The notes below the pieces were generated by a model. It did no database searches and was not told the DNA's origin. It was given only the letters and a program-made list of their open reading frames with translations. Positions 11,639 through 55,566 of a stretch of 64,000 nucleotides of DNA are shown one piece after another. This stretch comes from an uncultured Streptococcus sp. (GTDB taxonomy: Bacteria > Bacillota > Bacilli > Lactobacillales > Streptococcaceae). Both the position numbers and the translations under genes were made by a program. The stretch is taken from assembly GCA_963522215.1 (NCBI GenBank), contig CAUQXM010000003.1, positions 306 through 64,305 on the forward strand, in the 5' to 3' direction. The first letter of the stretch is position 1, and every line of letters begins with the position of its first letter.

Positions 11639-12661
<1,023 letters not shown>

Positions 12662-12806: not shown

Positions 12807-13985
12807 ATGACACAACATCTTACTGCTGAAGCTCTTCGTAAAGACTTTCTTGCTGTTTTTGGTCAAGAAGCAGATCAAATATTCTTTTCACCAGGTCGTA
12901 TCAACTTGATTGGTGAGCACACAGACTATAATGGTGGACATGTATTTCCAGCAGCTATTTCCTTAGGAACTTACGGTGCAGCTCGTAAGCGTGACGACCA
13001 AGTTTTACGTTTCTACTCAGCTAACTTTGAGGACAAGGGTATTATCGAAGTGCCTCTCGCCGACCTCAAGTTTGAAAAAGAGCACAACTGGACCAACTAT
13101 CCAAAAGGAGTTCTTCATTTCTTGCAAGAAGCTGGGCATGTGATTGACAAAGGTTTTGATTTTTATGTTTATGGGAATATCCCAAATGGTGCTGGTTTGT
13201 CTTCTTCAGCATCCTTGGAACTTTTGACAGGGGTTGTGGCAGAGCATCTCTTTGATTTAAAATTAGAGCGTCTCGATTTGGTTAAAATCGGAAAACAAAC
13301 AGAAAACAACTTTATCGGAGTCAACTCTGGTATCATGGACCAGTTTGCTATCGGTATGGGGGCAGACCAACGTGCTATTTACTTAGATACTAACACTTTA
13401 GAGTATGACTTGGTGCCACTTGATTTGAAGGACAATGTCGTTGTTATTATGAACACCAATAAACGCCGTGAATTGGCAGACTCTAAATACAATGAACGCC
13501 GTGCTGAATGTGAAAAAGCAGTGGAAGAATTGCAAGTCGCCTTAGATATTCAGACCTTGGGTGAATTGGACGAGTGGACCTTTGACCAATATAGCTATCT
13601 GATTAAAGACGAAAATCGTTTGAAACGTGCTCGCCATGCTGTGCTTGAAAACCAACGTACCCTTAAAGCTCAAGCAGCCCTTCAAGCAGGTGATTTGGAA
13701 ACATTTGGTCGTTTGATGAATGCGTCACACGTTTCTCTGGAGCATGATTACGAAGTAACTGGTTTGGAATTGGATACTCTTGTTCACACAGCTTGGGCAC
13801 AAGAAGGTGTTCTCGGTGCTCGTATGACAGGGGCAGGTTTTGGCGGATGTGCCATTGCTTTGGTGCAAAAAGATGCTGTTGAGGCCTTTAAGGAAGCTGT
13901 TGGCAAACACTACGAGGAAGTAGTTGGCTACGCTCCAAGCTTCTATATCGCTGAAGTTGCAGGTGGCACTCGCGTCCTTGACTAG
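12807..13985 (+). CDS. galK: Galactokinase
   Basis: [32 protein letters not shown]. Confidence 0.97.
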
Positions 13986-14003: not shown

Positions 14004-15485
14004 GTGACCTTAGTAGATAAATTTGTAACACATGTCATTTCTGAAAGTTCATTTGAGGAAATGGATCGAATCTACCTGACCAATCGTGTCTTGGCACGAG
14101 TGGGAGATGGTGTTTTGGAAGTTGAGACCAATCTGGATAAAGTGATTGACCTCAAGGACCAGCTGGTTGAGGAAGCCGTTCGATTAGAGACGATTGAGGA
14201 TAGTCAGACTGCGCGTGAAATCCTTGGTGCTGAACTGATGGATTTGGTAACCCCTTGTCCAAGTCAGGTCAATCGTGATTTTTGGACAACCTATGCCCAC
14301 TCTCCTGAGCAGGCGATTGCGGATTTTTACCAACTTAGCCAGAAAAATGACTACATCAAACTCAAGGCTATTGCTAAAAATATCGCTTATCGTGTTCCAT
14401 CTGATTACGGTGAACTTGAAATTACCATCAACCTCTCTAAGCCTGAAAAGGATCCCAAAGAGATTGCGACAGCCAAGTTGGTGCAAGCTAGTAATTATCC
14501 TCAGTGTCAGCTTTGTCTAGAGAATGAGGGCTACCATGGTCGGGTCAACCACCCAGCTCGCAGCAACCACCGTATTATCCGTTTTGAAATGGCTGGTCAG
14601 GAGTGGGGCTTCCAGTATTCGCCCTATGCTTACTTTAATGAGCACTGTATTTTCTTAGATGGCCAGCATCGTCCCATGGCCATTAGTCGTCAGAGTTTTG
14701 AGCGTCTACTGGCTATTGTAGAGCAGTTTCCAGGCTATTTTGCGGGTTCAAATGCCGACCTGCCGATTGTGGGGGGCTCTATTCTAACTCATGATCACTA
14801 TCAGGGAGGCCGTCATGTATTTCCTATGGAATTGGCTCCCTTGCAAAAGACCTTCCTATTTGCTGGTTTTGAGCAGGTCAAGGCTGGAATTGTCAAATGG
14901 CCAATGTCAGTGTTGCGTTTGACTTCGGATTCCAAAGAAGATTTGATCAACTTGGCTGACAAGATTTTACAGGAATGGCGTCAGTATTCAGATCCTAGTG
15001 TGCAGATTTTGGCAGAGACGGACGGAACACCGCATCACACCATCACACCCATTGCCCGTAAACGCGATGGCCAGTTTGAGTTGGACTTAGTCTTGAGAGA
15101 CAATCAGACATCGCTAGAGCATCCTGATGGCATCTATCATCCCCACAAGGATGTACAACATATCAAGAAGGAAAATATCGGCTTGATTGAGGTCATGGGC
15201 TTGGCAATCTTGCCACCACGTTTAAAAGAAGAAGTGGAGCAAGTCGCTAGCTATCTTGTAGGAGAAGCTGATACAGTTTCCGACTATCATCAGGAATGGG
15301 CAGACCAACTTAGAACCCACTATCCAGATCTAACAGATAAAGAAAAAGCCCTTGAAATCGTCAAGGACTCTGTGGGTACTATCTTTGCGCGTGTGCTTGA
15401 GGATGCAGGAGTCTACAAGCAGACGGAACAAGGACAGGCAGCCTTTATGCGCTTTGTGGAGCAGGTCGGAATTTTGCCAGACTAG
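14004..15485 (+). CDS. galT: Galactose-1-phosphate uridylyltransferase (Gram-positive type)
   Basis: [34 protein letters not shown]. Confidence 0.95.
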
Positions 15486-26853: not shown

Positions 26854-26907
26854 GAAAGACGCGAGTTTCCACGAATGAGGTTGTGGAAACTCGCGTCTTT
26901 CTTTTTT
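26854..26907 (+). terminator. 19-bp perfect hairpin followed by a T run
   Basis: GAAAGACGCGAGTTTCCAC / GTGGAAACTCGCGTCTTTC-TTTTTT. Confidence 0.7.
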
Positions 26908-27364: not shown

Positions 27365-27420
27365 TTGACAATTTTGATTTAAAAATATATTATAAAGAAA
27401 ATGACAGCGGTGTCATTTTC
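27365..27420 (+). promoter_or_regulatory. pfbA promoter with LacI-type operator
   Basis: TTGACA-17-TATTAT; palindrome GAAAATGACA-GCGG-TGTCATTTTC at 27397-27420. Confidence 0.75.
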
Positions 27421-27479
27421 TGGTATGGAATTTATATGAATATTAAATTAGGACATAATATTTTTAATTGGAGGCTAAT

Positions 27480-29588
27480 ATGAAATCTTTTCAACAAAAT
27501 GAGGTTTTCTCTATTCGTAAGTCTAAGGTGGGAGTTTGCTCAGTTCTCTTAGCGGTTTTATTTATTGGAACACAAAGTGTTTTAGCTAATGAAGTAGTTG
27601 GTGAAACTTCTTCGTCTAAAGATAATATGCAAATGAACTCTTTGTTGAGTAGCACATCTACATCATTATCTGCGGAACCCCATTCTGATACTCTCAGTCT
27701 TGATAACAATTCAAGTTTAAGTACTGATAATAATGGAGGAGTGAGTATTAATCAAAATAAACCTGATATAACAAATGATACTATGATTGGTAACATCTCT
27801 GGGATGGAAGTGAATACTATTTTAAGTACTAATCTGAACGAACACGTAGCTTTGAATGTTAAAGATTATGGAGCAATAGGTGACGGGGTTAATGATGATC
27901 GTCAAGCAATTCAAGATACAATAGATGCTGCAGCTAAAGGACTAGGCGGAGGAAATGTATATTTTCCTGAAGGAACTTATTTAGTAAAAGAAATTGTTTT
28001 TTTAAAAAGTCATACACACTTAGAATTGAATGAGAAAGCTACAATTCTAAATGGTATAAATATTAAGAATCACCCTTCTATTGTTTTTATGACAGGTTTA
28101 TTTACGGATGATGGTGCGCAAGTAGAATGGGGCCCAACAGAAGATATTAGTTATTCTGGTGGTACTATTGATATGAACGGTGCTTTGAATGAAGAAGGAA
28201 CTAAAGCAAAAAATCTACCACTTATAAATTCTTCAGGTGCATTTGCTATTGGGAATTCAAATAACGTAACTATAAAAAACGTAACATTCAAGGATAGTTA
28301 TCAAGGGCATGCTATTCAAATTGCAGGTTCGAAAAATGTATTAGTCGATAATTCTCGTTTTCTTGGTCAAGCTTTACCTAAAACTATGAAAGATGGGCAA
28401 ATTATAAGTAAGGAGAGTATTCAGATTGAACCATTGACTAGAAAAGGTTTTCCTTATGCTTTGAATGATGATGGGAAAAAATCTGAAAATGTTACTATTC
28501 AAAATTCATATTTTGGTAAAAGTGATAAATCTGGAGAATTAGTAACAGCAATTGGTACACACTATCAAACATTGTCGACACAGAACCCCTCTAATATTAA
28601 AATTTTAAATAATCATTTTGATAACATGATGTATTCTGGTGTACGTTTTACAGGATTCACTGATATTTTAATTAAAGGAAATAGATTTGATAAGAAAGTA
28701 AAAGGAGAAAGTGTACATTATAGAGAAAATGGTGCAGCCTTAATAAATGCTTTTAGTTATAAAAATGTAAAAGATGAACTTGATTTAAATAAGAAAGTCG
28801 TTATTACTGAAAATACATTTTATATTTCTGATCCTAAAACAAAGGCTATTAGAGTAGCAAAAGATAGTGCAGAATATTTAGGAAAAGTATCAGATATTAC
28901 TGTAACAAAAAATGTAATTAATAATAATTCTAAGGAAACAGAACAACCAAATATTGAATTATTACGAGTTAGTGATAATTTAGTAGTCTCAGAGAATAGT
29001 ATATTCGGCGGTAAAGAAGGAATTGTTATTGAGGATTCAAAGGGTAAAATAACCGTTTTAAATAACCAATTTTATAATTTATCCGGTAAGTATATATCAT
29101 TCATCAAATCTAATGCAAATGGGAAAGAACCAGTTATACGTGATAGCGATGGTAATTTCAATATTGTAACGGAGAATGGGCTTTACAAAATTGTAACAAA
29201 TAACTTAAGTGATAAAAACGAAAAAGAAAAAAACAAAGAGGAAAAATTTAAAACAAGTTCATATGTGCATGAAAAACAATCTAATTCAAATAATGTAATT
29301 GATAGTAACCAGAAGAAAGGAGAGTTTAACTCAAGTAAAGATAATAGACAAATTAATGACAAGATCGACAATAAACAAGATAATAAGATAGAAGAAGTGA
29401 ACCATAAAAAAGTTGGAGATGGCAGAGAAACTGAAAATCATATTAATAAATCTAAAGAAATAGTAGAGGTAAAACAAAAATTACCAAAGACTGGTTCGAA
29501 CAAGATTATGGAACTATTCTTAACAGTGACAGGAATTGGTTTACTTTTGACACTAAAAGGGTTGAAGTATTATGGTAAAGATAAATAA
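27480..29588 (+). CDS. pfbA: Cell-wall-anchored beta-helix protein PfbA
   Basis: FSIRK..G..S signal, NVKDYGAIGDGVNDD pectate-lyase-3-type start, LPKTG anchor; ATG 27480 after GGAGG. Confidence 0.9.
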   Translation: MKSFQQNEVFSIRKSKVGVCSVLLAVLFIGTQSVLANEVVGETSSSKDNMQMNSLLSSTSTSLSAEPHSDTLSLDNNSSLSTDNNGGVSINQNKPDITNDTMIGNISGMEVNTILSTNLNEHVALNVKDYGAIGDGVNDDRQAIQDTIDAAAKGLGGGNVYFPEGTYLVKEIVFLKSHTHLELNEKATILNGINIKNHPSIVFMTGLFTDDGAQVEWGPTEDISYSGGTIDMNGALNEEGTKAKNLPLINSSGAFAIGNSNNVTIKNVTFKDSYQGHAIQIAGSKNVLVDNSRFLGQALPKTMKDGQIISKESIQIEPLTRKGFPYALNDDGKKSENVTIQNSYFGKSDKSGELVTAIGTHYQTLSTQNPSNIKILNNHFDNMMYSGVRFTGFTDILIKGNRFDKKVKGESVHYRENGAALINAFSYKNVKDELDLNKKVVITENTFYISDPKTKAIRVAKDSAEYLGKVSDITVTKNVINNNSKETEQPNIELLRVSDNLVVSENSIFGGKEGIVIEDSKGKITVLNNQFYNLSGKYISFIKSNANGKEPVIRDSDGNFNIVTENGLYKIVTNNLSDKNEKEKNKEEKFKTSSYVHEKQSNSNNVIDSNQKKGEFNSSKDNRQINDKIDNKQDNKIEEVNHKKVGDGRETENHINKSKEIVEVKQKLPKTGSNKIMELFLTVTGIGLLLTLKGLKYYGKDK

Positions 29589-30318
29589 AATTTGTTCGAT
29601 ACAAGGAAGTTCCGTAGAAAATGAGGATGCTGTAGGTTCACAAAATCAGTATTTTTGGATTATTGATGGAGCTACAGATTTATATAATTCTAAAGAGGAG
29701 ATAGGTTATTCAGTCTCAGAAGTTGTACATATTTTATCAGAAAGTTTGTCGGTTAATTGTAAAGAATCAAAAACTCTTAAACAAATATTTGAAACTGCTT
29801 TACTAGAGGTTAAAGATGAAATCGGTTTAAACTCATATGAATTAACAGAGTATTATCGCTTACCAACATTTGCTTTTATATTTGCTAAACTTTCAGAAAA
29901 AAAGTTGGAGTATATGATGCTAGGTGACTGCGTCATGTTAGTAAACGAAATGGAAATAACTGATCATAGAGTAGATAACTTATTTGAAAAAGGGAAAAAT
30001 GAGATAAAAGACTCAATTGGTACAAATAGTGTTTTAAATAAAAAAATTATTTTACAAAAAATCAGAAAATTATCTAATCAACCGAGTGGGTACTGGATAG
30101 GTTCGTTGGATGAAAGATTTTTAGACCATGCTATTATTAATCAAATAGATGTTACTAGTGAACAAATTGTTTTAATGAGCGATGGCTTTTATGAATTCTA
30201 TCAAAATAATCAAAATAAAACTTTTGAAGAGTTAATTAAGATGAGATTTAATTCTTCTGCTATTGATCCAATCTATGGAAAGAAAGATGATGCAAGTATT
30301 GTAGTTATTGATGTTTGA
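29572..30318 (+). CDS. PP2C-like phosphatase domain protein
   Basis: NEDA, IDGA, LGDC, LMSDG, KDDAS motifs in PP2C order. Confidence 0.75.
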   Translation: MVKINKICSIQGSSVENEDAVGSQNQYFWIIDGATDLYNSKEEIGYSVSEVVHILSESLSVNCKESKTLKQIFETALLEVKDEIGLNSYELTEYYRLPTFAFIFAKLSEKKLEYMMLGDCVMLVNEMEITDHRVDNLFEKGKNEIKDSIGTNSVLNKKIILQKIRKLSNQPSGYWIGSLDERFLDHAIINQIDVTSEQIVLMSDGFYEFYQNNQNKTFEELIKMRFNSSAIDPIYGKKDDASIVVIDV

Positions 30319-30375
30319 TATATTGTTTAAAATATTAATTGTTACTATTGAACTTTGTTAAGAAGAGGTACCTAA

Positions 30376-31017
30376 ATGTTAAGGTTATATTTAGAAAATG
30401 AAATTATAGAATTATCAAATAATTTAGAGACCATTTGGGTATCTGTGCTTGATAAATATGAGAAGTTATTTGAATATTTATCAAATGAAGAACGAATAGA
30501 ATTGATTAAAGAAGATTTAATCATAAATGAGTCAGTTCTAAATGTTGATAAAAAAGGATATGAGTTAATTTGTTTACAACATCCCGTTTCATATGACTTA
30601 AGAAGAATTATTAGTGTAATAAAAATATCAACTGACATTGAACGTATTGGGGATAGAATTGTTGAAATTTTAAAAAATCTACAGATTATTCAAAATAATG
30701 AAATTTTGAAGAAAATTATTTCAGAAATAAAAATACTTCATGAAGTTATCGGACTGCATATGAATAGGGCTATATCTTGTTATAGAGAGGAACAATCTGG
30801 ATGTTTAGATATGGTTGTTATACAAAAACAGAATGAGATAGAAGAGCTTAGTACAAATATTGAAAATAAAATAATGAATTACATATTTGAAGATGATGGG
30901 AATGTTTCTGAAGTAATTGGTGCTTTAGATATTATTCATCACCTTGATAAAATTGCTCATACTACGCAATCAATTTATAAATGGATAATGTATAGAAAAT
31001 ATGGGAACATAAATTAG
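30376..31017 (+). CDS. PhoU-family protein
   Basis: QHPVSYDLRRIISVIKISTDIERIGD. Confidence 0.85.
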   Translation: MLRLYLENEIIELSNNLETIWVSVLDKYEKLFEYLSNEERIELIKEDLIINESVLNVDKKGYELICLQHPVSYDLRRIISVIKISTDIERIGDRIVEILKNLQIIQNNEILKKIISEIKILHEVIGLHMNRAISCYREEQSGCLDMVVIQKQNEIEELSTNIENKIMNYIFEDDGNVSEVIGALDIIHHLDKIAHTTQSIYKWIMYRKYGNIN

Positions 31018-31029
31018 AAAGAAAAATAT

Positions 31030-32505
31030 ATGAAAACAATTATTGATAATTTTGTTGATAGAGTAATTGAATACGGAATGTATAATGAAATTGACAAAAT
31101 ATATGTGAAAAATAGAGTACTAGCGTTAATAGGTGAGGAGGGAACTGATCGCATTTCCGATGAAAATGACCTGAAACAAATAAAAGATTACTTAGTGGAA
31201 ATCGCCTTAAAAAACGGTAAAATTAAAGATTTAATCGAGGAAAAGGAATGTTTAGGAGCAGAGTTAATGAATTTCATAGTTCCTTTACCTAGTCGATTAA
31301 ATGATATTTTTTGGAGTTCATATGATATATCACCTCAAGAAGCAGTTGAAGAGTTTTATAAGTTAAGTAAAGATAGTGATTATATTAAAACTTCTGCTAT
31401 TGCTAAGAATATTGAGTTTCGATCATCAACTAAATACGGAGAGCTAGAGATTACGATAAATTTGTCAAAACCCGAAAAAGATCCAAAAACAATTGCTGCT
31501 GAAAAATTAGTAAAAGCAACTAATTATCCCAAATGTTTACTATGTATGGAAAATGAAGGATATCAGGGGCGAATAAATTATCCAGCACGTTCGAATCATA
31601 GAATTATTCGGTTGAAACTTGGTGACGAAGTATGGGGATTCCAGTATTCTCCCTACTCATATTTTAATGAGCATGCGATATTTTTAAATAGTCAACATGT
31701 ACCAATGGCTATTACCTCTAAAACATTTGAACAATTATTGGAGATTGTTGATATTTTGCCAGGATATTTTGCTGGTTCAAATTCTGATCTTCCTATCTCA
31801 GGAGGCTCCATTCTTAGTCATAACCACTACCAGGGAGGGAAACATATTTTCCCAATGGAAAAAGCAAAATTTGAGAGTGAATTTCGTTTTAAAGACTTTG
31901 AGGATGTTAATGCTGGTATTGTAAAATGGCCAATGTCAGTAATTAGGTTACAAAGTGAAAATAAAAATCGCTTGTTAGATTTAGCTACTAAAATTCTAAA
32001 TAAGTGGAGAGAATATTCAGATTTAGAAGTAGACATCATTGCTATGACTGAAGATGTCCCACACCATACGGTGACTCCTATTGCTCGTAAAGTGGACGGG
32101 AGATATGAATTAGATATTGTTCTAAGAGATAATCATACTACTGAACAATACCCAGATGGTGTTTTCCATCCTCATCAAGATGTACAACATATTAAAAAGG
32201 AAAATATCGGGTTAATCGAAGTGATGGGACTTGCGATATTACCACCTCGTTTGAAACCAGAGTTAGAAGAAGTTGGAAAATATCTTTTAGGAGAGGATAA
32301 CGCAATTGCGGATTATCATTTAGAATGGGCTGATCAATTGAAAGAAAAATATCCTAACATTAAAAAAGAAGAGGTTAATAGCGTAGTTCAACACGAAGTA
32401 GGACAAGTATTTGCGAGAGTCCTAGAAGATGCAGGTGTTTATAAGAATACTTCATCTGGACATGAAGCGTTTATGAGATTTGTTAAATCGGTTGGAATAA
32501 ATTAG
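31030..32505 (+). CDS. galT: Second galactose-1-phosphate uridylyltransferase
   Basis: Same motifs as 14004-15485 but AT-rich codon usage. Confidence 0.93.
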
Positions 32506-32517
32506 GAGGAAACAAAA

Positions 32518-33528
32518 ATGGCAATATTGGTAACAGGCGGAGCTGGTTATATTGGTAGCCATACCGTGGTAGAATTATTAATTTTAGGAAAGGAAGTTGT
32601 AATTGTCGATAACCTTTCGAACTCTAGCATCTTGGTATTAGATCGTATTGAAGCAATTACAGGGAAACGTCCTACGTTTTACGAATTAGATGTTTGTGAT
32701 AAACAAGAATTGAGAAAAGTTTTTGAACAAGAATCTATTGAAGCTGCAATCCATTTTGCAGGATACAAGGCTGTCGGCGAATCAGTGCAAAAGCCTGTGA
32801 TGTACTACGAAAATAATATTATGAGCACATTAGCTCTTGTTGAAGTGATGTCAGAGTTTAATGTTAAAAAGATCGTATTTTCATCGAGTGCGACTGTATA
32901 CGGCATTCACAATCAGTCTCCTCTTATTGAGACAATGCCTACAAGTGCAACAAATCCTTATGGGTACACGAAAGTGATGCTTGAACAAATTTTAAAAGAT
33001 GTTCATGTGGCAGATTCAGAATGGAGTATTGCGTTGCTTCGTTATTTCAATCCAATTGGTGCTCATGAGTCTGGTTTGATTGGGGAAGATCCCTCAGGAA
33101 TTCCTAACAACTTGATGCCTTATATTGCACAAGTAGCGGTAGGTAAGCTGTCAGAGCTAAGTGTGTTCGGAAATGATTATGATACGCTTGATGGTACTGG
33201 TGTGCGTGATTATATCCATGTAGTAGATTTAGCAATAGGACATATAAAAGCTTTAGAAAAAGTATTTGAAAAAACAGATGTTTATATCTATAACCTAGGC
33301 TCGGGAGAAGGCACTAGTGTATTACAACTTGTAAATACATTTGAAAGTGTTAATAAGATCCCTATTCCTTATAAAATAGTTCCAAGACGTTCAGGAGACG
33401 TTGCAACTTGTTATGCAAATGCAGACAAAGCATATAAGGAATTAAATTGGAGGACAACAAAATCGGTTGAAGACATGTGTAGAGATACATGGAATTGGCA
33501 ATCAAAAAATCCCAATGGCTATAATTGA
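32518..33528 (+). CDS. galE: UDP-glucose 4-epimerase
   Basis: TGGAGYIGSH, SSSATVYG, YGYTK, LRYFNPIG. Confidence 0.95.
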   Translation: MAILVTGGAGYIGSHTVVELLILGKEVVIVDNLSNSSILVLDRIEAITGKRPTFYELDVCDKQELRKVFEQESIEAAIHFAGYKAVGESVQKPVMYYENNIMSTLALVEVMSEFNVKKIVFSSSATVYGIHNQSPLIETMPTSATNPYGYTKVMLEQILKDVHVADSEWSIALLRYFNPIGAHESGLIGEDPSGIPNNLMPYIAQVAVGKLSELSVFGNDYDTLDGTGVRDYIHVVDLAIGHIKALEKVFEKTDVYIYNLGSGEGTSVLQLVNTFESVNKIPIPYKIVPRRSGDVATCYANADKAYKELNWRTTKSVEDMCRDTWNWQSKNPNGYN

Positions 33529-33624
33529 TGATACTGTCTATATGAGTGCTGTATTTTGGAAAAATTACTTAACCTTTTAATGAAATTCATATTTAATGAA
33601 AGATAAATTTTTTTAAAAAAATTT

Positions 33625-33688
33625 TTGAAAGCGCTTGACAAAGGAAACGGTTTCATTGTATAATGTAAACATGATGACACCGATGTCA
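33625..33688 (+). promoter_or_regulatory. Promoter with cre-like boxes and second LacI-type operator
   Basis: TGAAAGCGCTTGAC and AGGAAACGGTTTCA; TTGACA-18-TATAAT; TGACA-CCGA-TGTCA at 33675-33688. Confidence 0.75.
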
Positions 33689-33711
33689 AATATAAAAAAG
33701 AAGGTCTTTAT

Positions 33712-34371
33712 ATGAAAAACTTAACAAAAATTAAGTTCAAAGAGAATGGGGAATTTAATCATTTCCCTGGGAATACAGTTGTAGCAAATCTTTATACTAA
33801 ACAAGATTTGATGGAAGTTGTTGATATTATTCAATCACGTTATAGAGAATTACCATTTATCGATAAGTTTACTTTAACTCCAAGGAATTCTATTCACATG
33901 ACTGTAATTGAATTGTTGTGCCATGAAAATCGTGAAACGGAGTTTTGGAGCAGTAATCTTCCTCTAGATACACCTTTACAGGAAATACATGATTACTTTG
34001 CTAAACAACTTGAAATTTTTCCATTGTTGGATGAAGAAATTCATATGCGTGTAACTGAAATGGGAAAACAAAACATACTAGTTGAACCTGCAGATGAAGC
34101 TTCTGCAAAGAGATTAGAAGAAATTCGTACTTATGTCTCAGAAAAAGCAGGTGTTCGTTTCCCTAATCATGATAGATATCAATTCCATATTTCAATTGGG
34201 TATCTTCGGATTCCTCTAACCGAAGAGGAGGAAGAAGAGTTTACTAAAGTCAGAGCAGAATTAACTGAAATTTTATTAGAGAAGATTCCAACTATTACTG
34301 TAAACCGTATTGACTATACTGTATTTGAAGATATGAGACAATTTGTTCCATATCATGAAAAATTTAAATAA
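33712..34371 (+). CDS. 2H phosphoesterase (DUF1868-like)
   Basis: Two HxT/S motifs (SIHMT, FHIS); FPGNTVV. Confidence 0.8.
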   Translation: MKNLTKIKFKENGEFNHFPGNTVVANLYTKQDLMEVVDIIQSRYRELPFIDKFTLTPRNSIHMTVIELLCHENRETEFWSSNLPLDTPLQEIHDYFAKQLEIFPLLDEEIHMRVTEMGKQNILVEPADEASAKRLEEIRTYVSEKAGVRFPNHDRYQFHISIGYLRIPLTEEEEEEFTKVRAELTEILLEKIPTITVNRIDYTVFEDMRQFVPYHEKFK

Positions 34372-34395
34372 AATAATAAAAAAGGAGAACTTATC

Positions 34396-35463
34396 ATGAA
34401 AAAAATGAAAGTTTGGTCTACTGTACTTGCAACGGGAGTTGCTCTTACTACACTTGCTGCTTGCTCTGGAGGTTCAAATTCTACGACTGCTTCTTCATCT
34501 GAAGAAAAAGCTGATAAAAGTCAAGAATTAGTAATCTATTCGAACTCAGTCTCAAATGGTCGTGGTGATTGGTTAACTGCTAAAGCAAAAGAAGCTGGTT
34601 TTAATATCAAAATGGTTGATATCCCTGGCGCTCAATTAGCAGACCGTGTTATTGCCGAGAAGAATAATGCAGTTGCAGATATGGTATTTGGAATTGGTGC
34701 TGTTGATTCAAATAAAATTAGAGATCAAAAATTACTAGTACAGTACAAGCCTAAATGGTTAGATAAAATTGATCAATCTTTATCAGATAAAGATAATTAT
34801 TATAATCCTGTGATTGTTCAACCATTAGTTTTAATTGGAGCGCCTGATGTAAAAGAAATGCCTAAAGATTGGACTGAATTAGGTAGTAAGTATAAAGGTA
34901 AATATTCAATTTCTGGGCTCTCAGGTGGAACAGGACGGGCAATTCTAGCAAGTATCTTAGTTCGATACCTTGATGATAAAGGTGAATTAGGTGTTTCTGA
35001 AAAAGGTTGGGAAGCAGCAAAAGAATATCTGAAAAATGCATACACTCTTCAAAAGGGAGAAAGTTCAATTGTTAAGATGTTAGACAAAGAAGATCCAATA
35101 CAATATGGAATGATGTGGGGTTCTGGTGCATTAGTTGGACAAAAAGAACAAAATGTTGTTTTCAAAGTTATGACTCCTGAGATTGGTGTACCATTTGTAA
35201 CTGAACAAACTATGGTTTTAAGCACTAGTAAAAAACAAGCGTTAGCTAAAGAATTTATTGATTGGTTTGGTCAATCAGAAATTCAAGTAGAATATAGTAA
35301 GAACTTTGGATCTATTCCTGCAAATAAAGATGCCCTCAAAGATCTACCAGAAGATACTAAGAAATTTGTTGATCAAGTGAAACCACAAAATATTGACTGG
35401 GAAGCTGTTGGAAAGCATTTGGATGAATGGGTAGAAAAAGCTGAATTAGAATACGTACAATAA
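34396..35463 (+). CDS. ABC substrate-binding lipoprotein (AfuA/PhnS/FbpA-like)
   Basis: Lipobox LAAC; AEKNNAVADMVFG; SGGTG. Confidence 0.85.
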   Translation: MKKMKVWSTVLATGVALTTLAACSGGSNSTTASSSEEKADKSQELVIYSNSVSNGRGDWLTAKAKEAGFNIKMVDIPGAQLADRVIAEKNNAVADMVFGIGAVDSNKIRDQKLLVQYKPKWLDKIDQSLSDKDNYYNPVIVQPLVLIGAPDVKEMPKDWTELGSKYKGKYSISGLSGGTGRAILASILVRYLDDKGELGVSEKGWEAAKEYLKNAYTLQKGESSIVKMLDKEDPIQYGMMWGSGALVGQKEQNVVFKVMTPEIGVPFVTEQTMVLSTSKKQALAKEFIDWFGQSEIQVEYSKNFGSIPANKDALKDLPEDTKKFVDQVKPQNIDWEAVGKHLDEWVEKAELEYVQ

Positions 35464-35563
35464 GAAATAAGAGTTAATTTTTGTCCAAGTCTCTCTATTA
35501 TTTCTAAATTTATTGAAGAAATAAAGAGAGGCTTTTGGTTTAGTAATAGAGGGAGTTAGTGAG

Positions 35564-36574
35564 ATGATTAAATTTGATAATATTCAAATTAAATATGGTG
35601 ATTTTGTTGCAATTGATAATCTGAATTTAGATATACATGAAGGGGAATTTTTTACATTTCTTGGGCCTTCAGGATGTGGTAAATCAACTACTTTGAGAGC
35701 ATTGGTAGGTTTTCTAGATCCATCATCAGGAAGTATTGAAGTTAATGGAACAGATGTCACTCATTTGGAACCTGAAAAGCGTGGAATTGGTATTGTATTT
35801 CAATCTTATGCGCTATTTCCAACTATGACTGTTTTTGATAATATTGCATTTGGTTTAAAAGTTAAGAAGGTAGCTCCAGATGTTATTAAAGCTAAAGTAT
35901 CAGCAGTAGCAGCAAAAATTAAGATCTCTGATCAACAGTTACAGCGTAATGTATCAGAATTATCTGGGGGTCAACAACAAAGGGTAGCATTGGCTCGTGC
36001 TCTGGTTCTTGAACCTAAAATTCTTTGTCTAGATGAACCATTGTCAAACCTTGACGCAAAATTACGTGTAGATTTGAGAAAAGAGTTGAAAAGACTTCAA
36101 AAAGAGTTAGGTATTACTACTTTATATGTTACTCATGACCAAGAGGAAGCCTTAACTTTATCTGATAGAATTGCAGTCTTTAACAATGGATACATCGAAC
36201 AGGTCGGTACACCTGTAGAGATTTATCATAATTCTCAAACTGAATTTGTATGTGATTTTATTGGCGATATTAATGTTTTGACCGATGAAACAGTCCACGA
36301 AGTATTACTGAAAAATGCAAGCGTTTTCTTAGAAGATAAAAAAGGATACATTCGATTAGAGAAAGTTCGATTCAATCGTGAAACTGAACAAGATTTCATT
36401 CTAAAAGGAACAATTATTGATGTTGAGTTTTCTGGAGTTACAATTCACTATACAATAAAAGTTTCTGAAAGTCAGATTCTTAATGTAACAAGTATTGATA
36501 GTCAGGCTGCTATTAGATCTGTCGGAGAAAGTGTGGACTTATTTATCACACCATCAGACGTTCTGCAATTTTAA
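35564..36574 (+). CDS. ABC ATPase (AfuC/PotA-like)
   Basis: [31 protein letters not shown]. Confidence 0.93.
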
Positions 36575-36585
36575 GGAGGTGCAGT

Positions 36586-38277
36586 ATGCGTCATAAATTA
36601 AATTTAAAAGATTGGCTTATTCGTTTAGGGTTAATCTGGTTCCTAGTAACATTTATTATTTATCCAAACTTTGATCTAGTAGTGAATGTATTTGTAAAAG
36701 GAGGAGAATTTTCCCTTGAAGCTGTACATCGTGTTCTAAAATCTGAGAGGGCACTTCAGAGTATTATGAACAGTTTTAAGTTAGCATTTTCACTCATTAT
36801 TACAGTTAATGTCGTAGGTATTCTTTGTGTTCTATTTACAGAGTACTTTGATATTAAAGGTGCTAAAATTTTAAAATTAGGCTATATGACCTCTTTAATT
36901 TATGGAGGAGTGGTTTTAGCGACTGGATATAAATTTGTCTATGGTCCTTATGGATTGATAACAAAATTTTTACAAAATGTTATCCCTTCTTTAGACCCTA
37001 ACTGGTTTATTGGGTATGGTGCAGTCTTATTCATTATGACATTTTCAGGAACTGCTAATCATACATTGTTTTTAACAAATACAATTCGAAGCGTTGACTA
37101 TCACACTATTGAGGCTGCACGAAATATGGGAGCAAAACCATTTACTGTTTTCCGAAAAGTAGTGTTACCAACCTTAATTCCAACTCTATTTGCACTTACT
37201 ATTATGGTTTTTCTTAGTGGTTTATCTGCAGTAGCAGCACCCATGATTGTTGGTGGTAAAGGATTTCAAACTATAAATCCAATGATTATTACATTTGCAG
37301 GGATGGGGAATTCTCGTGATTTAGCTGCCTTACTTGCAATTATTTTAGGTATTGCAACTACAATTTTGCTTACTATCATGAATAAGATAGAAAAAGGTGG
37401 AAATTATATTTCTATCTCTAAGACTAAAGCGCCTCTTAAAAAACAAAAAATTGCATCTAAGCCTTGGAATATCATTGCTCACATTGTAGCATATGGATTG
37501 TTCACAGTTTTCATGCTTCCACTAATTTTTATAGTATTATACTCATTTACAGATCCAGTTGCAATTCAAACAGGTAACTTAACATTATCAAACTTTACTT
37601 TAGAAAATTATCGCTTATTCTTTAGTAATAGTGCGGCATTCTCTCCATTCTTGGTCAGCTTTATTTATTCTATTATCGCTGCGACAACAGCAACAATTCT
37701 CGCAGTTGTATTTGCTCGAGTTGTCAGAAAACATAAAGCTCGCTTTGATTTCTTATTTGAATATGGTGCTCTACTTCCTTGGTTACTACCAAGTACACTT
37801 TTAGCAGTAAGTTTATTATTTACTTTTAATCAGCCACAATTTCTTGTCTTGAATCAGATTTTGGTAGGTAGTTTGGTAATTCTACTTATTGCATATATAG
37901 TTGTAAAAATCCCATTTTCTTATAGAATGGTACGTGCTATTTTATTTAGTGTTGATGATGAGATGGAAGATGCAGCAAGAAGTATGGGTGCTTCACCTTT
38001 TTATACTATGATGAAGGTTATCATTCCATTTATTTTACCGGTTGTTCTCTCTGTTATTGCTTTAAACTTTAACTCTTTATTAACTGACTTCGACTTATCT
38101 GTATTTCTTTACCATCCATTAGCTCAACCGCTGGGTATAACTATTCGTTCAGCAGGTGATGAAACAGCAACTTCAAATGCTCAAGCACTTGTATTCGTTT
38201 ATACTATTGTATTAATGATAATTTCTGGTTCTGTATTATACTTTACTCAGAGACCAGCTAGTAGAAAAAGGAAATAA
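36586..38277 (+). CDS. ABC permease with duplicated TMD (AfuB/FbpB-like)
   Basis: 563 aa; two EAA loops ([17 protein letters not shown]). Confidence 0.92.
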
Positions 38278-38279
38278 TA

Positions 38280-38990
38280 ATGAATGCAACAAGCTTAGGA
38301 CTATCATATATCGAAATTGTATTAAGAATTGTGCTTTCATTAGTTATTGGTGGTGTAATTGGTTTAGAGAGAGGAAGTAAATCTCAACCAGCAGGTATTC
38401 GTACACATAGTATTGTTTGTCTGGCTGCATGTTTAATTATGATGACTAATGAGTATGTATCTTATAAATTTGGTACAGGAGATCCTACACGCTTAGGTGC
38501 GCAAGTTATATCAGGTGTTGGTTTTCTTGGGGCTGGAACAATACTTATTACAGATAAAAAGAAAATAACTGGTTTAACAACTGCAGCCGGAATATGGGCT
38601 TCAGCTGGAATCGGTCTAGCTATAGGTGTTGGTTTTTATGAAGGAGCCGTACTAGGAGCAGTTTCTGTTTGGAGTGTTATAACTATGTTCCAACCTTTAA
38701 AAAAATATCTTCAAAGTCGTTCAAAGATAATCGAATTGTATATCGTTGTTAGATCTACAGAGGCATATAATCGGGTACTAGTATACTGTGCTGAGAATGG
38801 CATTAGAATGACTGATTCTAGAACTGCATTTGGAGATGTTAATTCAGAAAGAATTGAATATTTTGATGTTCCAGAAAAAAAAATAGCATCATTTATTACT
38901 CTAGAACTATCAGGAAGATTTGAACATCTTCGTTTGATGGAAGAAATTGCTAATATTGTAGGTGTTATTTATGTCGAAGAAATTAGCTGA
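38280..38990 (+). CDS. MgtC/SapB-family membrane protein
   Basis: GLER, AGIRTH, DPTRLGAQVISGVGFLGAG, GLTTAA. Confidence 0.92.
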   Translation: MNATSLGLSYIEIVLRIVLSLVIGGVIGLERGSKSQPAGIRTHSIVCLAACLIMMTNEYVSYKFGTGDPTRLGAQVISGVGFLGAGTILITDKKKITGLTTAAGIWASAGIGLAIGVGFYEGAVLGAVSVWSVITMFQPLKKYLQSRSKIIELYIVVRSTEAYNRVLVYCAENGIRMTDSRTAFGDVNSERIEYFDVPEKKIASFITLELSGRFEHLRLMEEIANIVGVIYVEEIS

Positions 38991-39085
38991 AATTTAGTAA
39001 ACAAAGGGACAGATGTTTTTGTCCTTTTGTTTTTTTAATGTTTTAATCATCTAATTTTTGAGTAGATTTTTGCTCAGAGGTTTTT

Positions 39086-39454
39086 ATGAAAGATTATAAA
39101 ATCTATTTTGATTTAGGTAAAATAGAATATTTTGATAATAATTGTTTGATACAAGTATACAAATTTATTTCTTTTTATGATATTTGTGAAATGGTGTTTC
39201 CCTTTCGTTTACCTCCTGATGAGTTGATAACAAATGTTATTTTTAAAGAAAAAATTAAGTCTATGTTAGAATGTTACATTGACAGGCTATTATATATTTT
39301 TATAAATCCAACAATTTTTACTGAAAAAGTTAATCTACAATTTTATGGTAGTTTTTTCTCATATGAATTTATTTGTCGTGAAGTTGGAAACATTCTTAAA
39401 AATAAAGGTGTGAATTGCAATTTAAACTTTTTTGAAGGGGAAGAATATTTGTAA
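39086..39454 (+). CDS. Hypothetical protein
   Basis: 122 aa ORF with AGAGG RBS; no recognisable motif. Confidence 0.55.
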   Translation: MKDYKIYFDLGKIEYFDNNCLIQVYKFISFYDICEMVFPFRLPPDELITNVIFKEKIKSMLECYIDRLLYIFINPTIFTEKVNLQFYGSFFSYEFICREVGNILKNKGVNCNLNFFEGEEYL

Positions 39455-39561
39455 AATTAATTTTGTGAATTTGTGGATCTTAAATAATTTACAAAATTCT
39501 CTTGTTAAAAAAAATTAAATATTGTATAGTAATATTAGAATGTTCGTAATGGAGGACTGAA

Positions 39562-40563
39562 ATGAAAAATATAAATGGGAAAAAGGTAACTATTTATGAT
39601 ATTGCACGTTTATCAGGTTTTTCTCCAAAAACAGTTTCACGAGTTATTAATGGTGGAGTAAATGTTAAAGAAGAAACTTATCAAGCGATTCAAAAAGTTA
39701 TAGAGGAATTGTCGTATATTCCAAATGCGTATGCAAAAAATTTAACTAAAAAAGAAGCTATAAATATATTGATTTCTGTAAAAAAAATCGACTCTTTTCC
39801 TTTAATTTGGTTTCAAACTTTATTAGATAAAGTTTTACAAACTTGTAAAGAGTATGGTGTTAACGCTATTGTTGAATATTTTAGTGAAGAAGATACAATT
39901 AGTAATTCAATAATCTCGAGTACAGGAAGCTTGATAGATGGTGTAATAGTATTTTATGAAAGTAAAGAAGATATTCGGATTAATTACTTGCAAAAGAATA
40001 AAATGCCATTCATAGTTTTTGGAGAATCTAGAACACCTAATGTTGTGTATGTTTCTAACAACAATTTTCAGGCCACTTATGACATGATGAAATTAGTATC
40101 AAAAGAAAACATTAATAGTATGTGGTTACTTATGGGAGGAGAATCCCTTGTTAATATTGATCGAGAGAGAGGGGTTCGTGCTTTTTTAAATGATAATAAC
40201 TATGAAATGGATTTGAAAGTAGTATATGGTCTAACTACAATAGATTCTGTTTATTCATATGCTACAAGACATCTATCTAATCAAAATTATCCTGATTTGA
40301 TTTTTGTATCCGGTGATGAAAAAGTACAGGGATTGATTCGTTCTTGCTATGAGAAGGAAATTACCATTCCTGATGATATTTCAATAATCGGATTTGACAA
40401 TATTCCAATTTCTCAATATTATACTCCAGCTTTATCTACAATTTCTCCTAATTATGTTAAATTAGCTCAAGAAATGATTGAAGGGGTATTAGCAATTATA
40501 AAGGGGGAAAGTGTCACATCTGTTGAAGTTTCTACTAAACTTGTTAGGAGACAGAGTTTCTAG
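39562..40563 (+). CDS. LacI-family regulator of the pfbA-gal-ABC locus
   Basis: TIYDIARLSGFSPKTVSRVIN; IIGFDN. Confidence 0.92.
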   Translation: MKNINGKKVTIYDIARLSGFSPKTVSRVINGGVNVKEETYQAIQKVIEELSYIPNAYAKNLTKKEAINILISVKKIDSFPLIWFQTLLDKVLQTCKEYGVNAIVEYFSEEDTISNSIISSTGSLIDGVIVFYESKEDIRINYLQKNKMPFIVFGESRTPNVVYVSNNNFQATYDMMKLVSKENINSMWLLMGGESLVNIDRERGVRAFLNDNNYEMDLKVVYGLTTIDSVYSYATRHLSNQNYPDLIFVSGDEKVQGLIRSCYEKEITIPDDISIIGFDNIPISQYYTPALSTISPNYVKLAQEMIEGVLAIIKGESVTSVEVSTKLVRRQSF

Positions 40564-40750: not shown

Positions 40751-41039
40751 TTGACAAAGAAAAAACAAAGTATTAAAATAAGTTCAACAAATCAGAAAAG
40801 TAACTATTTTTGATCTTCAGGGAGCCTGTGGTGATTGTGAACAGGTGGTTGAAAGTAGTGAAAGTGGGCTGATTTTAAAAATGAATTTGAAACAATGAAA
40901 ATTCGGTGCGCACACCTTACAGTGCAACTTGTTGTTAGACAAGGTAGAGATGTAAAGGAGATAGTTCCTTTATAATTGAGGTGGCACCGCGTTACCAACG
41001 CCCTCACATGGAATTTAATTCTGTGTGTGGGCTTTTTTC
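40751..41039 (+). ncRNA. Promoter and Trp T-box riboswitch 1
   Basis: TTGACA-17-TAAAAT; stem I AAATCAG/CTGATTT with GAAAG-TGG specifier; AATTGAGGTGGCACCGCG at 40974; terminator with T run. Confidence 0.9.
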
Positions 41040-41074
41040 ATATCTTGAAATCAATACAGAAAGAGGAAATTTTT

Positions 41075-42253
41075 ATGACAACTAAAGGTTATTTTGGACA
41101 ATTTGGTGGTAGTTTTGTACCGGAGCCTATTCAGGCTTTGTTGGATGAGTTGGAAGTGACATTTGAAAAGTACAAGGATGATCCAGAATTTTTGGCAGAA
41201 TTTCGCCATTACTTAAAGGACTATTCAGGTCGCGAAACACCGCTCTATTTTGCGGAAAGTTTGACAGACCACTTAGGTGGCGCTAAGATTTATCTCAAGC
41301 GCGAAGACCTGAACCACCTTGGTTCTCACAAGCTCAACAACGTTTTAGGACAAATCCTTCTTGCCAAACGTATGGGCAAAAAACGAGTGATTGCGGAAAC
41401 AGGAGCTGGTCAGCACGGTGTTGCGACAGCAGCGGCTGCAGCCAAGTTTGGGATGGCCTGTGATGTCTACATGGGAGCAGAGGATGTGGAACGTCAACGT
41501 CTCAATGTTTTCCGTATGGAGATGATGGGAGCAACTGTTCATGCAGTTGAAACGGGAACACGAACTCTTAAGGATGCGGTTGATGCAGCCTTTGGAGCAT
41601 GGATGAATGACCTTGAAGCCTTCTATGTTCTGGGATCTGCTGTAGGTCCTCACCCTTATCCTACAATTGTTCATGAATTCCAAAAGGTCATCAGTGAAGA
41701 ATCTCGCCGTCAAATCTTAGAAAAAGAAGGCCGTTTACCAGACTACGTTATTGCCTGTGTAGGTGGTGGTTCCAATGCCATCGGTGCTTTTTCGCAGTAT
41801 GTGGCTGATGAAGAAGTCAAATTGGTTGGGGTCGAAGCTGCTGGTCATGGACTTGATACAGACAAGCACGCAGCTACTATGACAAAAGGTAGTATCGGAA
41901 TTGTCGACGGCATGAAGACCTATGCAGTCTTTAAGGAAGATGGAGAGCTAGCTCCAGTTTACTCTATCTCAGCTGGTTTGGACTATCCAGGGGTTGGTCC
42001 AGAACACGCCTACTTTAAAGATTCTGGCCGCGTAGAATATGTGGCAGCGACAGATGAAGAAGCGGTTCAAGCCTTGCTCCTTCTTAGTAAGACAGAAGGA
42101 ATTATCCCAGCGATTGAAAGTTCGCATGCCATCGCAGAAGCAGTTAAACGTGCACCGAAACTAAGTAAAGATGAGATTATCATCATCAATGTCTCTGGTC
42201 GTGGAGACAAGGACGTAGCTGCTATTGCAGACTACCTAGAAGCTAAAAAATAA
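41075..42253 (+). CDS. trpB: Tryptophan synthase beta chain, extra paralogue
   Basis: [37 protein letters not shown] 41075 after AGAGG. Confidence 0.93.
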
Positions 42254-55462: not shown

Positions 55463-55566
55463 TTGACAAATAATGAAAGCGCTGTTATAATATAAACTAT
55501 AAATGAAACGTTTCAAAAACAAGTTGAAAAACTTGTTTAAAAATAAATAAAAAATGAAACGTTTCA
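55463..55566 (+). promoter_or_regulatory. Promoter with cre and two LacI operators
   Basis: TTGACA-17-TATAAT with TG extension; TGAAAGCGCTGTTA; TGAAACGTTTCA at 55504 and 55555. Confidence 0.8.

Follow-up and report, generated by a model that had tools for sequence, protein, structure and literature searches.

In Escherichia coli, uptake of glycerophosphodiesters is carried out by the UgpBAEC-UgpQ system, while the lacto-N-biose/galacto-N-biose (LNB/GNB) pathway of bifidobacteria consists of lnpABCD and an ATP-binding cassette (ABC) importer. The 2H cyclic phosphodiesterases, which open adenosine diphosphate (ADP)-ribose 1'',2''-cyclic phosphate to ADP-ribose 1''-phosphate, and PhnP, with phosphoribosyl 1,2-cyclic phosphate as its substrate, are precedents for the conversion of a sugar 1,2-cyclic phosphate into a sugar 1-phosphate. 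A further importer, AfuABC, was first annotated as an iron importer (PMC4546632). The system analyzed here is encoded at positions 27365-40563 of a 64,000-nucleotide stretch of DNA from an uncultured Streptococcus sp. (contig CAUQXM010000003.1, positions 306 to 64,305; hereafter, the window), in an island that includes genes for the surface protein PfbA, GalT, GalE, a DUF1868/2H phosphoesterase, an ABC importer, an MgtC-family protein and a LacI-family regulator. It is Ugp-like in its logic, AfuABC-like in its hardware and LNB/GNB-like in its Leloir shortcut, and a member of none of them. The reading favored here, and considered reasonably probable, is that a hexose-1-phosphate diester or cyclic phosphate is imported, opened by the 2H enzyme and then passed to GalT and GalE, with the substrate and the role of PfbA being presumptive.

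The likeness to Ugp lies in a binding-protein-dependent ABC importer encoded together with a cytoplasmic phosphodiesterase, which in a sister subfamily of the present importer is an enzyme of the glycerophosphodiester phosphodiesterase (GDPD) family. Here, however, the binding protein belongs to cluster D (FbpA/AfuA-like fold), the permease is fused and has an MgtC partner, the window locus carries a 2H enzyme instead of a GDPD, with GalT and GalE added, and control would be of the LacI type, in contrast to the Pho regulon that governs Ugp. The LNB/GNB pathway likewise places type-2 GalT and GalE beside an ABC importer and yields galactose 1-phosphate (Gal-1-P) without a galactokinase, but bifidobacterial Gal-1-P is released from a disaccharide by a GH112 phosphorylase, whereas cleavage of a phosphodiester is proposed here. 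Neither a GH112 phosphorylase nor an N-acetylhexosamine 1-kinase was found among the 12 island proteins (Pfam and NCBIfam), and an APH-family kinase was present only in three sister loci (L118-L120). The window enzyme keeps both HxT/S motifs of the 2H enzymes; to our knowledge, no 2H enzyme uses a hexose cyclic phosphate or a hexose-1-phosphodiester as substrate, and no function has been assigned to DUF1868, whose structure has been solved (2FSQ). AfuABC is similar in overall fold, transporter architecture and early annotation, and a Ser/Thr plus S-G-T phosphate motif aligns, but the AfuA triad H205/D206/E229 is not kept here, sequence similarity is marginal, and no linked phosphodiesterase is described for AfuABC.

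Linkage of the importer to phosphodiesterases

The island is best explained as a self-contained catabolic regulon under one LacI-type repressor. Its principal features are the following:

27365-27393, + strand, promoter P1 (TTGACA-17-TATTAT, 11/12 consensus matches), before pfbA
27401-27416, operator O1, ATGACAGCGGTGTCAT, a LacI-family-type palindrome just 3' of the P1 -10 box
27468/27480-29588, + strand, PfbA, with YSIRK signal, right-handed beta-helix and LPKTG sortase anchor
31030-32505, + strand, GalT, type 2, second copy (NF003631, 954 bits vs. 765)
32518-33528, + strand, GalE (481 bits vs. 394), one of three paralogs in the genome
33626-33639, weak cre-like element, TGAAAGCGCTTGAC, overlapping the P2 -35 box (imperfect match, judged by eye)
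33635-33664, + strand, promoter P2 (TTGACA-18-TATAAT, 12/12), before the 2H gene
33674-33689, operator O2, ATGACACCGATGTCAA, just 3' of the P2 -10 box
33712-34371, + strand, DUF1868/2H phosphoesterase, cytoplasmic (PF08975, 147.5 bits vs. a cut-off of 21; PDB 2FSQ, E 1.6e-24)
34396-35463, + strand, lipoprotein substrate-binding protein of a cluster-D family, with LAAC lipobox (pneumococcal SPD_1609/SP_1826)
35564-36574, + strand, ABC ATPase with TOBE_2 domain
36586-38277, + strand, fused double permease with two BPD_transp_1 domains
38280-38990, + strand, MgtC-family membrane protein, beginning 2 bases beyond the end of the permease gene
39562-40563, + strand, LacI-family regulator with its own promoter (PF00356 and PF13377, i.e. 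helix-turn-helix and periplasmic-binding-type effector domain)

The neighborhoods of 80 genome and 80 metagenome loci encoding related importers were compared, with neighbors labeled by BLASTP against the window proteins and one sister locus. The importer was beside a phosphodiesterase in 140 of the 160 loci, of the 2H type in 84 and of the GDPD type in 56, and never beside both:

Genome loci (80): 2H, 74; GDPD, 4; both, 0; neither on an incomplete contig, 2; neither on a complete one, 0
Metagenome loci (80): 2H, 10; GDPD, 52; both, 0; neither on an incomplete contig, 17; neither on a complete one, 1

The sole complete exception (L125) has a Mutator-family transposase as the next open reading frame (ORF) after the permease, approximately 1.3 kb downstream. 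Lineages with the 2H type comprised the Mitis group, the S. oralis group, two Granulicatella types, S. merionis and S. suis, while those with the GDPD type included many gut and streptococcal forms at 38-55% identity. The window carries the 2H enzyme and no GDPD among the locus proteins, and so lacks the mark of a Ugp-type locus. MgtC was present in 70/74 genome and 10/10 metagenome loci of the 2H type, and in 4/4 and 29/52 of the GDPD type, respectively.

DUF1868 was also detected at five places in 4 of 301 genomes from another Bacilli family, and in none of 400 other sampled genomes of the phylum. At three of these places a 2H protein of 22-30% identity adjoins a homologous binding protein (30-32%), ATPase and fused permease; at a fourth, DUF1868 lies beside homologous ATPase and permease genes, with no binding protein detected. 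An AraC-family regulator is encoded near all four. The fifth place holds the closest relative (37%), which adjoins a LacI homologue, a GH42 beta-galactosidase and a sugar ABC importer. The replacement of one phosphodiesterase fold by another, together with a linkage that persists down to about 25% identity, is the strongest evidence obtained and argues strongly that the transported compound would be a phosphodiester.

As the original prediction had it, the product of 33712-34371 is a 2H phosphoesterase: besides the PF08975 match, the motifs H62-x-T64 and H159-x-S/T161 were invariant in 15/15 DUF1868 sequences, down to 33% identity. No signal peptide was found in this protein.

Two side observations concern the related loci. 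In the distant DUF1868 cassettes, a protein of approximately 250-316 amino acids without Pfam family is encoded upstream of the importer genes (L177, 14242-15192; L179, 14356-15231; L178, 13966-14859; L180, 5122-5877). In L177, L179 and L180 its gene immediately precedes that of the binding protein; in L178, which has no detected binding protein, it lies a few hundred bases away from the ATPase gene. Moreover, the regulator of most GDPD-type loci (L001, 3880-5916, - strand) is a 678-residue fusion of a LacI-type helix-turn-helix with a domain resembling an extracellular solute-binding protein (SBP_bac_8), an unusual architecture.

Leloir genes without a galactokinase

No GHMP/galactokinase domain was found among the island proteins. 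As originally noted, a galactokinase is encoded elsewhere in the window, next to another GalT:

11639-12643, - strand, divergent LacI-family (galR-like) regulator
12807-13985, galactokinase GalK
14004-15485, GalT

The island GalT shares about 58% identity with the housekeeping type (locus L003). The co-occurrence of DUF1868 and galT, put forward with the original prediction as a check, was confirmed irrespective of gene order: GalT was found in 67/74 genome and 9/10 metagenome loci of the 2H type, and in 0/56 of the GDPD type. In six of the seven GalT-less genome loci of the 2H type, the contig ends less than 2 kb from the gene for the binding protein; L064, the remaining one, carries other genes upstream, including a PF09992 "phosphodiester glycosidase" (141 bits). 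S. suis and S. merionis have the order 2H, binding protein, ATPase, permease, MgtC, PhoU-like, GalT, GalE and LacI, as opposed to GalT-GalE-2H, so that the association of GalT with the importer is more than the inheritance of one arrangement. Leloir entry without need for GalK is well supported by this gene content.

Published genetics of the pneumococcal counterpart are consistent with this picture. In strain D39 on galactose, galT-1 is reported to be 49-fold higher in the galT-2 mutant than in the wild type, and the mutant remains able to grow on this sugar, indicating that GalT-1 works (PMC4380338). This response suggests that the inducer accumulates downstream of GalK, i.e. that it would be Gal-1-P or a derivative rather than free galactose.

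The gene content of sister loci also agrees with a link to sugar 1-phosphates. A nucleotidyltransferase (NTP-transferase), the APH-family kinase mentioned above and GalE precede the binding protein in L118-L120; in L092, a PF09992-domain protein and a phosphohexomutase follow the permease, and other sister loci encode HAD phosphatases or MBL-fold proteins of the RNase Z/PhnP branch (weak matches, 30-33 bits). PF09992 (NAGPA) was observed near the importer in two unrelated loci (L064, 5986-7017, - strand, 141 bits; L092, 6245-8458, 47 bits), that is, in 2/160 with Pfam run on the unlabeled neighbors of a subset; as a lead, these neighbors point to glycosyl-1-phosphodiester substrates. As for GalE, it scored 5 bits higher against the E. 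coli Y299C mutant (1LRK) than against the wild type, but its "gatekeeper" Cys was rejected as a special mark, given that the 58% housekeeping paralog also has Cys.

A regulon with shared operators

The same 14-bp palindromic core, TGACAnCGnTGTCA, is found at P1 and P2. Within the window, a search with the operator pattern that allowed up to 3 mismatches found 7 matches, counted by strand, where 0.37 were expected, while in the genome (85% complete) the core occurred only at O1 and O2, plus one site with a single mismatch and without the central CG. Among related loci with enough sequence, it was present upstream of the 2H gene in 78/78 and upstream of pfbA in 64/68, with three further near-matches and one miss. 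Furthermore, the operator accompanies pfbA where this gene is relocated behind lacI (Granulicatella elegans, L072) or divergently transcribed (S. merionis, L067). Both features of LacI/GalR regulation were found, namely a regulator with LacI helix-turn-helix and effector domain, and CG-centered palindromic operators. O1 and O2 have the form expected for a LacI-family operator; the regulator is presumed to be a repressor, and it would bind at both sites. The proposal that the island genes form one regulon with shared operators is well supported by this conservation. The element TGAAAGCGCTTGAC was judged against what we take to be the cre (catabolite-responsive element) consensus, and is kept as a lead only.

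Approximately 0.6 of the sampled words were present in RNA-seq contigs (seven runs from three studies), and in raw reads from four runs the sense-strand coverage in culture was low across the locus, with depth increasing at the 2H gene in three of them. Coverage of lacI was much above that of the rest of the locus, with molecule ends piling up at 39551-39557. As weak evidence, this pattern agrees with a repressed regulon whose repressor is expressed on its own; operon structure is left unsettled by the reads.

Further observations were made on these elements. In some loci of S. oralis, S. infantis and S. gordonii (L046, 16262; L051, 16262-16997), a second MgtC-family gene (43% identical) lies downstream of lacI and has the same operator in front of it. 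The operator search, at 3 mismatches, also returned a cre-like palindrome, ATGAAAGCGCTGTTAT, at 55473-55488, outside the island. Sense RNA coverage was close to zero over the 3' half of mgtC (38400-38863) in 4/4 raw-read runs, the preceding bins being covered, and a weak terminator-like site lies at 37986-37998; the gap may stem from mapping or divergence, or else from early termination.

Proposed pathway

Under the reading favored here, PfbA, anchored at the surface, would engage an anionic glycan outside the cell through its invariant electropositive groove. The cluster-D lipoprotein, together with the ATPase, the fused permease and the MgtC partner, would then import a small phosphodiester organophosphate, a step strongly indicated by comparative genomics. 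In the cytoplasm, the 2H enzyme would open the diester, or a hexose 1,2-cyclic phosphate, to a hexose 1-phosphate, which the island GalT and GalE would turn into glucose 1-phosphate and uridine diphosphate (UDP)-sugars with no galactokinase; for this last step the enzyme families were demonstrated, and the function of pneumococcal GalT-1 is supported by the genetics reported in PMC4380338. The PP2C-like and PhoU-like proteins, described below, would be optional extras that probably handle a second phosphate or restrain transport.

The original prediction that a phosphodiester is imported and feeds GalT without GalK is partly supported, namely as regards the regulon, the phosphodiesterase pairing and the GalT linkage. 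Other parts of it, namely that the 2H product is Gal-1-P and that the substrate comes from receptor polysaccharide, capsule or a teichoic-acid-like polymer, are presumptive, as is any enzymatic activity of PfbA.

Several points weigh against this reading. Owing to close kinship among many of the 160 loci, the counts overstate independent support. The structure search places ferric, sugar-phosphate, vitamin B6, phosphonate and polyamine binders level. The substrates of the characterized 2H enzymes known to us are cyclic phosphates of nucleotides, RNA or ADP-ribose rather than hexose phosphates, and PP2C-type enzymes are usually protein phosphatases. Deletion of spd_1614, the PhoU-like gene, is reported to have no growth phenotype, and spd_1609 mutants are reported to contain less cellular iron and to grow more poorly in iron-depleted medium (PMC4738293, PMC6682666). 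Finally, PfbA is described as binding fibronectin and plasmin(ogen), while no lyase activity on glycosaminoglycans or pectic substrates is reported for it and its glycan arrays were inconclusive (PMC3718772).

Alternative functions

The alternative that survives best, though unlikely, is that the system mainly scavenges phosphate from environmental phosphodiesters in a Ugp-like manner, with GalT and GalE disposing of the sugar by-product, and the PhoU-like protein and MgtC tuning the influx. It would account for the grouping of PhoU-like, MgtC, phosphatase and phosphodiesterase genes, as well as for the HAD phosphatases and GDPD of sister loci. The two proteins concerned that are encoded between pfbA and galT are:

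29572-30318, + strand, PP2C_2-like (PPM) phosphatase (PF13672, 37.5 bits vs. 24), without signal peptide
30376-31017, + strand, PhoU-like protein with two PhoU domains (PF01895; TIGR02135, 98 bits vs. 130; PDB 1T72, E 6e-15)

The latter has a PhoU fold and, by its score, is not a PhoU equivalog. In the former, the acidic motifs ED, DG, GD, DG and DD, which we take to define PP2C, were invariant in 4/4 orthologs; no PDB relative was found by sequence, and an ESM Atlas search returned unnamed clusters and one PP2C_2 cluster. The PP2C-like gene is missing from the S. suis and S. merionis loci and the PhoU-like gene from the Granulicatella loci, so both are accessory, and the absence of the PhoU-like gene from Granulicatella is difficult to reconcile with phosphate scavenging. 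The listing of SP_1824-1826 by Kilian and Tettelin as a phosphate transporter within a 16-gene accessory block (PMC6722419) favors this alternative, but LacI-type control and a possible cre site are typical of carbon catabolism, and the GalT product is a retained sugar phosphate, not free phosphate. No phosphate-response element was seen, with no search aimed at one. Regarding the PP2C-like gene, it was also observed as two ORF fragments in L022 and L029, and in run X15, 34 and 11 reads had loose ends on either side of 29851-29853, inside the gene, indicating that the strain of that run has an insertion there.

Less likely again is the import of a phosphomonoester (e.g. Gal-1-P, cf. the hexose 6-phosphates of AfuABC) or of an unrelated organophosphate, the 2H enzyme being a housekeeping one that acts on nucleotide or RNA cyclic phosphates, the origin of the 2H substrates that we know of. 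This alternative draws on the binding protein, in which a phosphate-type motif is kept. At E <= 1e-20, 449 proteins belong to its well-conserved family, and an alignment of 22 diverse members has 55 invariant columns, R84, E88, K89, N90, D95, R190, Y191, W241 and E270 being among the invariant residues. The binding protein has no close relative among solved structures. A model of the window protein (predicted local distance difference test score of 87) has a cluster-D fold, for which Foldseek returned ferric, glucose-6-phosphate, vitamin B6, phosphonate, polyamine and thiamine binders at near-equal E-values, so that the fold alone cannot name the ligand. The phosphate site described for AfuA and P5PA consists of a Ser/Thr after strand 1 and an S-G-T at a helix start (PMC8427247). 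By alignment, the binding protein has a site of this style: the SSGT of the glucose-6-phosphate-binding VcA0625 (8X1A) aligns to G177-G178-T179 and its Ser37 region to Y-S-N-S, T179 being nearly invariant and N50 invariant in the family. In contrast, the residues H205, D206 and E229, which coordinate the sugar and define AfuA homologues (PMC4546632), are not kept, given that Q/V-N/G stands opposite the HD of 8X1A and V268 opposite the Glu position; similarity of the family profile to 4R72 was marginal (E 0.00038).

The binding protein is AfuA-like in fold and phosphate-site style, and outside the AfuA family by virtue of the missing triad. A PhnS/phosphonate identity was rejected, with scores of 60.4, 57.4 and 38.8 bits against cut-offs of 310, 393 and 395, respectively, and no phosphonate-catabolism families were found among the locus proteins. 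The label "AfuABC/PhnS-type" given to the importer in the original prediction holds for the cluster-D fold and for neither of the named families; on these alignments, the protein founds a distinct cluster-D family. Orthologs (E <= 4e-120) were found in 3/25 genomes of the genus, including the window's own, with weak matches elsewhere, and members at E <= 1e-60 in 2/401 sampled genomes of the class, a distribution that appears sporadic. Import of a phosphomonoester does not readily account for the 2H/GDPD-importer linkage, which holds down to 22-30% identity and across fold replacement, nor for the position of O2, which would directly control the operon starting with the 2H gene; furthermore, the absence of DUF1868 from the 400 other sampled genomes would be odd for a housekeeping enzyme.

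The published view, that the importer takes up ferric iron (SPD_1609/SP_1824-1826, "operon 804", "afuA-C") and that the sugar and phosphoesterase genes are unrelated neighbors, is considered improbable. A ferric-binding-protein fold is indeed among those resembled by the model, but the residues of the ferric site, which we take to be tandem Tyr-Tyr plus Tyr/His/Glu, are not kept. When the family profile is aligned to ferric-binding proteins (C. jejuni, M. catarrhalis), (A/V)S stands opposite the HY of 1Y4T, T179 opposite its Y and W241-G242 opposite its YY, while the YY of 7LI0 falls inside WGSG, so that the iron-ligand positions are occupied by A/V, S, T, W and G and the protein, by alignment, would be without ferric-site tyrosines. 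Pairing with a phosphodiesterase in 140/160 loci and a LacI-type operator in common with GalT/GalE also speak against a ferric importer. In favor of iron, a piaA/piuA/1609 triple mutant showed lower iron content by inductively coupled plasma mass spectrometry, and growth in Chelex-treated medium was poorer, with no rescue by FeCl3 or ferrichrome (PMC4738293, PMC6682666); the system was still treated as an Fe(III) transporter, afuA-C, in 2026 (PMC13317198). These two iron studies, however, report no direct binding assay, and the authors of the second call their own SPD_1609 iron evidence indirect (PMC6682666). There is also the precedent of AfuA itself, which was moved from iron to sugar phosphates (PMC4546632). 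The suspicion that the "iron ABC" annotation may be wrong is borne out to this extent, and the iron-transporter label appears doubtful. A literature search with DUF1868 and the locus tags returned no paper proposing a phosphodiester or Gal-1-P function, and the name DUF1868 was not found in the literature searched.

Finally, a biosynthetic role of GalT and GalE, in supplying UDP-Gal or UDP-GalNAc for a surface glycan beside an accidental transporter neighborhood, would fit the three GalE paralogs of the genome and the Bac_transf sugar transferase and DegT genes just upstream of the island, but is very improbable, given the terminator between those genes and the island, the persistence of GalT/GalE with the importer in other species and orders where the upstream glycan genes are absent, and the repressor sites in common with the importer operon.

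PfbA

The window PfbA is nearly identical to the pneumococcal protein (PDB 4MR0, 1090 bits), for which a 50-angstrom electropositive groove, shaped like those of carbohydrate-active enzymes, is described (PMC3718772). The groove residues named in that source (H293, Q296, K320, Q331, E333, K338, G339, H377, Y378, Y401, R405, R431, Y443, K444 and R474, numbered 16 lower here) were invariant in 9/9 orthologs of 49-86% identity, across genera, while the N- and C-terminal parts varied freely. A role of PfbA in the system, engaging an anionic glycan, is presumed.

A bolder version of the reading favored here can be put forward only tentatively, and is clearly less probable than its core. PfbA would not be primarily a fibronectin adhesin, but the outer depolymerase or capture component of an undescribed pathway for glycosyl-1-phosphodiester or hexose 1,2-cyclic phosphate fragments of phosphodiester-linked bacterial polysaccharides, which would comprise a new binding-protein family with MgtC partner, the first 2H enzyme in sugar catabolism and Leloir entry at GalT. 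The binding protein of this pathway would then be the vaccine antigen known as the "fourth pneumococcal iron transporter".

Boundaries and composition of the island

Twelve ORFs, all on the + strand, fill 27365-40563, and GC content falls to 0.28-0.35 over 26-40 kb, compared with 0.43-0.47 in the flanks, in agreement with the AT-rich, co-oriented gene cluster first noted. The remaining features at its ends are:

26854-26901, + strand, strong terminator hairpin (20-pair stem, then T run) that ends the upstream DegT-type gene; left boundary
38999-39032, + strand, terminator after mgtC
39086-39454, + strand, ORF of 122 amino acids, poorly conserved, with no Pfam or NCBIfam match
40784-41008, T-box leader (98.6 bits vs. 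a gathering score of 93), part of the next gene; right boundary

The closest public records of the island are from Mitis-group streptococci, and its pneumococcal counterpart is SPD_1605-1617/SP_1821-1833 (PMC4380338, PMC6722419). Membership of the 122-residue ORF in the system is doubtful, its product being only 33-55% identical in many loci that are otherwise near-identical. The right end of the island (39086-40563) was observed in two allelic forms (e.g. L005, L011, L014 and L018): in many loci with 98-100% identity elsewhere, this ORF is approximately 51% and LacI approximately 85% identical, indicating a recombination mosaic. In Granulicatella adiacens-type loci (L060, L062), identity to the streptococcal island is 95-96% for GalE, 91% for 2H, 75% for GalT and about 60% for PfbA, which suggests recent exchange between genera with uneven divergence. 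Downstream of the T-box leader and upstream of trpE, a TrpB-family ORF is listed at 40976-42253; its TTG start falls within the leader, so that the true start is probably later.

Implications

If the reading favored here is correct, it would provide a corrected label for a pneumococcal lipoprotein studied as an iron transporter and vaccine component. It would also give PfbA a testable substrate class, anionic phosphodiester-linked glycans, which are not among the tested substrates listed in the 2013 study of this protein (PMC3718772). DUF1868, and with it a binding-protein family widespread in oral and gut bacteria, would gain a first physiological context, and a second galactokinase-free route of Gal-1-P entry would stand beside the phosphorylase route of bifidobacteria. 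For the oral and nasopharyngeal streptococci that carry the island, so far known for an "adhesin", PfbA, and a supposed iron transporter, the finding would point to cross-feeding on the cell-surface polymers of neighbors in oral and nasopharyngeal communities.

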